From Escherichia coli (GTDB lineage Bacteria > Pseudomonadota > Gammaproteobacteria > Enterobacterales > Enterobacteriaceae): a stretch of 56,700 nt of DNA. The notes beneath the pieces were generated by a model that made no database searches, was not told where the DNA came from, and saw only the letters and a list, made by a program, of their open reading frames with translations. Shown here in pieces: positions 48,704 through 49,383 of the stretch (positions are counted from its first letter, which is position 1; each line of letters opens with the position of its first letter). The stretch lies in NCBI RefSeq assembly GCF_003334255.1, contig NZ_QOWU01000034.1; one strand, given 5' to 3'. Made by a program: the position numbers and the translations under genes.

Positions 48704-49337
48704 TATTTGTCCTTAAACTATAAATAATTAAAATATAAACATTGCAATACATTGATTCAGTCAATAGCCAATGTTTATACCCAGCCATTGAATACGGCAT
48801 GCGATCCAAAAAAACAGGTCGTAAAAAATGTATTCGTTGGTGTGGGGTCGAATAGTGATGTTTTCACTCCCCTGATTCAATTTAATTTTACTAATGAGTA
48901 AATGTAGATTTAATTAATATATTGATAGGGGAAAGATTATCTTAAGGATCTTCTAAAAAAACACGAAATATATATTTAGAAAAAACAGGAAGCATATCAA
49001 CAATGAATGCCAATAGCTTAAAAAACAAACAATGAACATATAATGCGATTGGCATTAACCCGCTTTTGTCGATATAATATATAAACACTATAGCCAGAAT
49101 TTAATCAAGTTTCAATTACGTCCTGCCTGATTATTCAACTCTATTTTCTCCATTATCTGTATTAATAAATGATAATGAGTGTCAAACAGACATTATTCAT
49201 TTCAACATGTAACTTTGGGCAAAATCAAGATACGCGCAGAAGAATACTTTCCGAATGAAAGTTAAAGGTGTTTTATTTATAGATGGGGAGAGTCTTCGAT
49301 AGTAGTGAGGTTGACAGATATCCGCTGCCTGATGAGC

Positions 49338-49374
49338 AATTATGCCCAATGAATCTACCTCATTGGGCATAATT
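49338..49374 (-). terminator. Hairpin terminator after sixA
   Basis: aattatgcccaatga-atctacc-tcattgggcataatt, 15-bp stem immediately after the sixA stop; T-run weak. Confidence 0.55.
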
Positions 49375-49383
49375 TGGAACTCA

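Follow-up and report, generated by a model that had tools for sequence, protein, structure and literature searches.

The spacer upstream of the cryptic yfc fimbrial operon of Escherichia coli is very probably an AT-rich control region silenced by H-NS

The 680-bp spacer between yfcV and sixA of Escherichia coli is, with a probability that we put at about 85 per cent, the cis-regulatory region of the cryptic yfc fimbrial operon: AT-rich, silenced by H-NS, and situated behind a stem-loop at the 3' end of sixA. As an H-NS-bound silent promoter region this spacer is already known, and it is a real but ordinary example of its kind. It would represent textbook-type xenogeneic silencing at a cryptic adhesin operon that has been catalogued in K-12, and our analysis offers little beyond confirmation. 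Lineage-specific expression could become easier to explain from the location of the promoter and from the occurrence of divergent alleles that keep length and composition constant, which would be an incremental gain.

The spacer was analyzed within a 56.7-kb stretch of DNA (hereafter, the window, to which all positions refer), where it extends from the start codon of yfcV to the stop codon of sixA (48704-49383). The gene yfcV (48140..48703) is the first of a chaperone-usher operon that reads yfcV-U-S-R-Q-P-O on the minus strand, and both sixA (49384..49869) and fadJ (50072..52216) are also encoded on that strand. Every base of the spacer matches E. coli K-12 MG1655, and the RefSeq annotation of identical DNA (strain 33-6, MG1655) lists the same genes, with none between yfcV and sixA. 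The GC content of the spacer is 0.319, versus 0.515 for the window; 680-bp segments that are equally AT-rich account for 0.08 per cent of the 56.7 kb, and each of them overlaps the spacer. Five runs of A6-A7 occur within it. With the MG1655 annotation carried over to this identical stretch, no other complete intergenic gap is as long (those ranked next measure 371, 365, and 337 bp), and the largest open reading frame (ORF) located fully within it encodes 57 amino acids (49197..49370, minus strand). A sequence-only reading of this DNA had reported an unusually long, AT-rich, non-coding gap upstream of yfcV that lacks ORFs of at least 60 amino acids. That observation is confirmed, because the coordinates are exact and because the AT-richness, the length, and the ORF maximum of 57 amino acids all agree with it. 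A second AT-rich tract (55758-56700, GC content of 0.30-0.35) comprises the spacer between fadL and yfdF along with the 5' part of yfdF, and the published promoter island yfdF/mlaA, which neighbors this tract, starts just past the end of the window.

The yfcV/sixA spacer is one of the 78 promoter islands listed by Panyukov and Ozoline, under the name "2453647_489 yfcV(-)/sixA(-)" (PMC3661553). Promoter islands, as described by Shavkunov, Panyukov, and Ozoline, are AT-rich regions with many potential start points, to which RNA polymerase is bound and from which almost no transcript arises (PMC3661553). After conversion of coordinates (window position = U00096.2 coordinate minus 2404965, a relation checked against the leader lengths that Kim et al. 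2012 state, 642 nt (yfcV) and 68 nt (sixA)), the published island corresponds to ~48682-49170 and covers ~490 of the 680 bp of the spacer. Binding of H-NS at the island is established experimentally by the ChIP data of Kahramanoglou (MG1655) and Oshima (W3110), while the Grainger ChIP data, the third study used for the islands, leave the spacer unscored (its label is K, not A) (PMC3661553). Genomic SELEX with the RpoD holoenzyme located a binding site in the same spacer, and Shimada et al. (2014) marked it HNS, from H-NS genomic SELEX, and illustrated it in Fig. 3b as representative (PMC3946193). The sigmaS holoenzyme has likewise been found to bind there: a SELEX peak of RpoS holoenzyme is reported for this spacer (PMC5493296), and its position, 2454170, converts to ~49205, within the spacer, under the coordinate system that we assumed. 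Also inside the spacer is a ChIP-seq peak of overproduced CsiR-FLAG (2454000 in U00096.2, or ~49035); ChIP and SELEX signals such as those of CsiR-FLAG and RpoS are frequent in AT-rich DNA.

These binding data coincide with a lack of productive transcription. The start-site table of Kim et al. (2012) for wild-type K-12, in which the rows of the two strands are sorted by coordinate, passes directly from 2446243 to 2454310 and so contains no 5' end from the sixA hairpin down to yfcV. Wurpel et al. classified yfc as a core-associated operon that is cryptic but functional (PMC3559732) and, with reference to Korea et al. (2010), described many chaperone-usher fimbriae of commensal E. coli as cryptic and repressed by H-NS. 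The operon can nevertheless be induced in published experiments: yfcV mRNA increases when TosR is overproduced in CFT073 (log2 of 5.2), when BolA is overproduced, and after treatment with bicyclomycin, which are the kinds of perturbation that relieve silencing by H-NS and Rho. The sequence-only reading had recognized the architecture of an H-NS-silenced fimbrial promoter, and the published H-NS ChIP data, the RpoD SELEX site with its HNS mark on this very spacer, and the H-NS repression of cryptic fimbriae of the yfc type (PMC3559732, after Korea et al. 2010) bear that view out.

Based on these observations, we propose that RNA polymerase binds the AT-rich spacer well in vitro and that in the cell H-NS would coat the spacer, so that no productive start would take place in ordinary culture and the fimbriae would remain cryptic. 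H-NS would probably nucleate on the AT-rich middle of the spacer and on a conserved core adjacent to it. Silencing would be relieved by AT-binding counter-silencers (TosR), by overproduction of BolA, or by inhibition of Rho, leading to expression; initiation would then most likely occur at a -10-like element close to yfcV (48737-48732), in the core located ~345-375 bp upstream, or at both. Read-through from sixA would be stopped by H-NS and Rho, rather than by the hairpin alone, which in K-12 lacks a U tract.

Comparison of alleles suggests that parts of the spacer are constrained. We aligned eight sequences that represent six divergent classes and comprise the K-12 type, two alleles close to it (94 and 92 per cent identity), O157, AR_0015, E69, the B2 strain ABU 83972, and E. 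whittamii. While sixA is present in all 5,426 complete E. coli genomes, a sensitive blastn search detected a spacer similar to that of K-12 in 3,531 of them, and the spacers of the other 1,895 have no blastn-detectable similarity to it. Identity to the window across alleles is 96-98 per cent for sixA and 95-100 per cent for the sixA-fadJ spacer, versus 43-58 per cent for the yfcV-sixA spacer, 64-86 per cent for yfcV, and 69-90 per cent for the 5' part of yfcU. An abrupt change in divergence among lineages coincides exactly with the sixA stop codon (49384; 45413-49383 compared with 49384-52216); on the far side of it from yfcV, sixA and fadJ are 95-100 per cent identical, E. whittamii included. 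In all six classes, however, the spacer is long (566-680 bp, with B2 at 566 bp) and AT-rich (GC content of 0.26-0.32), and we argue that its length and composition are selected because they have been kept despite an identity of 43-58 per cent. The E. whittamii allele is nearer to the K-12 and O157 alleles than the E. coli B2 allele is, and the divergence of the spacer, yfcV, and yfcU looks, from the alignments, like that of ancient allele classes swapped by recombination. The gene yfcV is in wide use as a marker of uropathogenic strains, and the deep divergence of its alleles probably explains why PCR of yfcV works as a lineage marker.

Several further observations accompany this comparison. 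A scan of contigs with an invariant 27-mer from the yfcV start region recovered only four loci, so that E. whittamii and the classes of E. coli alleles form the basis for footprinting across species. The exact E. coli 27-mer is carried by JAIJJM010000567.1 (2180 bp), a contig from a metagenome-assembled genome of Collinsella sp., which is most likely a mis-binned Escherichia contig. In several strains, IS1 or IS903B is inserted within the spacer or yfcV, as expected at AT-rich, H-NS-bound targets. The 202-bp spacer between sixA and fadJ (49870-50071) is more conserved than the coding sequence on either side of it (99-100 per cent identical among the E. coli alleles compared and 95 per cent in E. 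whittamii), and a published start site of sixA lies within it, at 49937.

Conservation is strongest next to yfcV. The proximal ~170 bp (48704..48870, read on the minus strand) have the appearance of a conserved regulatory part, with an identity to the window of 55-83 per cent versus 20-37 per cent distally, a conservation profile of 0.6-0.9, and invariant columns. On the minus strand they contain three conserved boxes, AAAACATCACTAT (48864-48852), CACACCAACGAATA (48844-48831), and TTCAATGGCTG (48792-48782), followed by a -10-like TATATT (48737-48732) that is present in all eight sequences and would yield a leader of ~22 nt, and by a ribosome-binding site, AAGGA (48714-48710). Upstream of this part lies the AT-richest middle of the spacer (48871..49044), with a GC content of 0.27-0.30, an identity of ~0.4-0.6, and A6-A7 runs at 48955, 48980, and 49020. 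The middle stretch falls within the published promoter island (~48682-49170), and we infer that it is the main platform for H-NS. It also includes a match to the IHF core (48915-48927); two of the five matches to the IHF core consensus in the window are in the spacer, and these are suggestive only, because the composition is biased. Motif searches for H-NS itself discriminate poorly: the 10-bp motif, with up to two mismatches, has three matches in the spacer, and its 69 matches in the window versus 54 expected make it unspecific. A near match, TCGATATAAT, at 49069-78 is therefore weak evidence.

The core (49045..49122, ~75 bp) forms a conservation peak of 0.56-0.66 and carries overlapping promoter-like sites on both strands. 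It holds two of the six sites in the 56.7-kb window that score at least 10/12, and it is likely to be the RNA-polymerase binding site detected by SELEX. Sites that score at least 8/12 are sixfold denser in the spacer than in the window (29.4 versus 4.7 per kb). Nonetheless, the promoter-like sites of the spacer number 4 compared with 3.6 in composition-matched shuffles, and because their density equals that of the shuffles, the "island" reflects composition (AT-richness) and not arrangement. One of the two core sites, TTGAAA-17-TATAGT (49087..49115, minus strand, directed toward yfcV), was recovered by our scan and coincides with the motif to which Shimada et al. (2014) attributed the RpoD peak on in silico grounds, with its direction taken from gene order (PMC3946193); SELEX yields no strand. 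It would give a leader of ~375 nt. This published K-12 promoter motif is best regarded as a candidate, as judged from the alignment: it is kept only in K-12-type alleles (10/12) and AR_0015 (8/12) and is unconserved in most alleles. The five classes other than K-12 have a yfcV-directed site too, made up of TTAATA or TTAAAT, 16-18 bp, and TAnAAT or AATAAT.

The other core site, TTGGCA-18-TATAAT (11/12; 49049..49078, plus strand), was found in the same scan and points toward sixA and away from yfcV. With a score of 10-11/12, it occupies the same alignment column in seven of the eight sequences, corresponding to five of the six classes, and in these five it is the top-scoring and the only positionally conserved strong site. 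Its -10 element overlaps the -35 element of the yfcV-directed site of the five non-K-12 classes, and the core thus resembles, at the level of sequence motifs, two overlapping and oppositely oriented promoters. Yet the wild-type table of Kim et al. (2012) lists no plus-strand 5' end at 49049-49078, and nowhere is the spacer less conserved than in the ~260 nt that the outward site would transcribe before reaching the sixA hairpin. The best-conserved promoter-like site of the spacer faces away from yfcV, over unconstrained sequence. One way to account for this would be a functional pair of overlapping, opposed sigma70 promoters, outward (TTGnnA-17/18-TATAAT) versus yfcV-directed, that acts through promoter competition as a directional device or produces a non-coding transcript. 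If so, the opposed core promoters would constitute a non-invertible device, or a source of non-coding RNA, that sets the escape of yfc from H-NS silencing. We consider such a function unlikely.

Between the core and the sixA hairpin lies a hypervariable distal stretch of ~215 bp (49123..49337), in which the six classes have a mean pairwise identity of 0.20-0.36 (20-37 per cent to the window), indels are many, and no conserved element is seen. The ORFs of this stretch are absent outside K-12-like alleles. A 9-bp direct repeat, CTGCCTGAT (49123/49325), was considered as the target-site duplication of an inserted element and was rejected because the sequence as read shows no terminal inverted repeats, because chance alone predicts about one repeat of this kind, and because the alignment of other alleles continues across the segment.

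The sequence-only reading had treated the whole gap as a promoter region, which holds for most of it but not for the ~60 bp next to sixA (49328-49388); these form a terminator-like stem-loop at the 3' end of sixA on the minus strand, identified from an inverted repeat and from RNA folding. Its inner stem of 15-16 bp (49338-49374) contains a perfect 15-nt inverted repeat, its outer stem overlaps the sixA stop codon, and the minus-strand RNA has a folding energy of -35.7 kcal/mol (z = -6.2). All alleles have such a hairpin, which in O157, AR_0015, and B2 occupies the same place with different stem sequences, and in O157 and AR_0015 a U-rich tail follows it. In contrast, the K-12-type hairpin has no U tract, its stem being followed by GCUCAUCAGG, and a terminator scan of the K-12 allele detected none. 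The sole published 5' end inside the spacer in wild-type K-12 also maps here, at 49345 on the minus strand (position 2454310 in Kim et al. 2012, 36 reads). Its place is the 3' arm of the hairpin; Kim et al. (2012) assigned it to yfcV, which starts 642 nt further on, and it may stem either from a weak promoter, for which the loop offers a -10-like TAGATT, or from RNA processing.

Alternative explanations of the spacer fare much worse than an H-NS-silenced control region. One of them takes the spacer to be inert filler (decayed DNA of horizontal origin, for instance), with any expression of yfcV depending on transcripts that run on from sixA. The lack of a U tract in the K-12 hairpin, the position of the sole listed 5' end at the far distal end of the spacer, and a distal 215 bp that evolves as though unconstrained all fit this account. 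However, conserved blocks in the proximal 170 bp and in the core have survived although the alleles are otherwise no more than 43-58 per cent identical, RNA polymerase binds in the spacer in vitro (RpoD and RpoS SELEX), the sixA terminators of other alleles are canonical, and yfcV responds to TosR, BolA, and bicyclomycin; we therefore regard inert filler as very improbable. Hardly better placed, though not quite as implausible, is a hidden gene for a small protein or a small RNA that acts as a regulator. Thirteen ORFs of 20-57 amino acids overlap the spacer, but across eight alleles stops or frameshifts interrupt all 13, in many cases even at 92-94 per cent identity, and a stop-to-stop scan of every allele revealed none longer than 71 codons and none that is shared. 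For an RNA, the near-consensus plus-strand site at 49049-78 is suitably placed, with ~260 nt between it and the hairpin, a possible terminator for transcripts of either direction; against it stand the low identity (0.20-0.36) of the stretch that would be transcribed, the lack of an Rfam match at E-values up to 1 on both strands of 48000-50200, and the lack of an annotated feature in MG1655 RefSeq and of a 5' end in the Kim et al. (2012) table at that place.

Two known fimbrial switches provide further models, and the idea in the sequence-only reading of a switch or small regulator within the gap is not supported: we found no inversion in 3,532 genomes, recombinase gene nearby, conserved small ORF, Rfam match, or conserved GATC pair. 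In the type 1 fimbriae system, the invertible promoter segment fimS is 314 bp long. Phase-variable yfc expression through such an element would involve short inverted repeats and a site-specific recombinase, and the spacer does resemble fimS in being an AT-rich, H-NS-bound region with possible IHF sites in front of a major subunit gene. It also contains a perfect 10-mer inverted pair (48718-27/49273-82, 545 bp apart), no longer than chance would produce in AT-rich DNA, and a 17-mer inverted pair of 76 per cent complementarity (48948-64/49268-84), whose spacing of 303 bp is near that of fimS but which is itself at chance level in AT-rich DNA. The sequence-only reading had identified no inverted repeats bounding an invertible element; several short ones exist, and none bounds a segment that is inverted in 3,532 genomes. 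Specifically, we searched the 3,532 genomes that have a related allele with a chimeric query in which yfcV was joined to the reverse-complemented spacer, so that any inverted part would extend the match past the yfcV half; the best coverage was 51 per cent and never reached past yfcV. Moreover, no tyrosine recombinase, whether of the fimB/fimE type or other, is annotated by the locus, whose neighbors are sixA, fadJ, fadI, and yfcU-yfcO, and the spacer aligns colinearly across divergent alleles without inverted blocks. We give a fimS-like switch practically no credence. An epigenetic switch like that of pap (P pilus), where the ON and OFF states depend on Lrp and on the methylation of two GATC sites by Dam, is also extremely improbable. 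The spacer shares with pap a length of several hundred base pairs, TosR, which induces yfcV in CFT073, belongs to the PapB family, and two GATC sites (48803-06 and 48947-50) each lie beside an A7 run in similar short repeats. Yet two is the number calculated by chance (~2.0 for 680 bp of such composition), and the spacing of the sites is 144 bp and not ~102 bp. The pair is also not conserved: the first site is missing from the B2 and AR_0015 alleles and the second from the O157, E. whittamii, AR_0015, and B2 alleles. Finally, none of the eight alleles has a papI- or papB-like ORF.

As an H-NS-silenced control region, the spacer closely resembles promoter islands, among which it is itself listed: it is AT-rich, has dense promoter-like sites, is bound by H-NS, and lacks productive starts. 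It differs from them in nothing essential, the rest of its 680 bp being the hypervariable stretch and the sixA hairpin. The island list also includes fimbrial spacers at yadN, ybgD, sfmA, elfA, yehD, yraH, and fimA, the first six being the upstream spacers yadN/folK, ybgD/gltA, folD/sfmA, ssuE/elfA, yehD/yehE, and agaI/yraH (PMC3661553). With the H-NS-repressed cryptic chaperone-usher operons of Korea et al. (2010), as cited in PMC3559732, yfc has in common a major-subunit gene in first position and a long AT-rich spacer. The yfc spacer, however, follows a housekeeping gene encoded on its own strand rather than separating divergent genes, and it is unusually divergent across E. coli lineages, with length and composition kept.

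The region downstream of yfcV also has features of its own. The usher gene yfcU is an intact ORF of 881 codons in the window (45413-48058, minus strand), while MG1655 yfcU has an in-frame stop (…DKGM*ISL…) and its C-terminal ~30 residues differ from those of the window; yfcV of the window differs from that of MG1655 by one base. The intact yfcU therefore points to a K-12-like strain other than MG1655 as the source of the window. Between yfcV and yfcU, a stem-loop with a GC-rich stem of 10 bp (48108-48133, minus strand; CCCCAUAGCG…UGCUAUGGGG, -20.4 kcal/mol) is found in all alleles. Other fimbrial operons are said to carry an attenuating hairpin after the major-subunit gene, and the yfcV-yfcU stem-loop is in the equivalent place.
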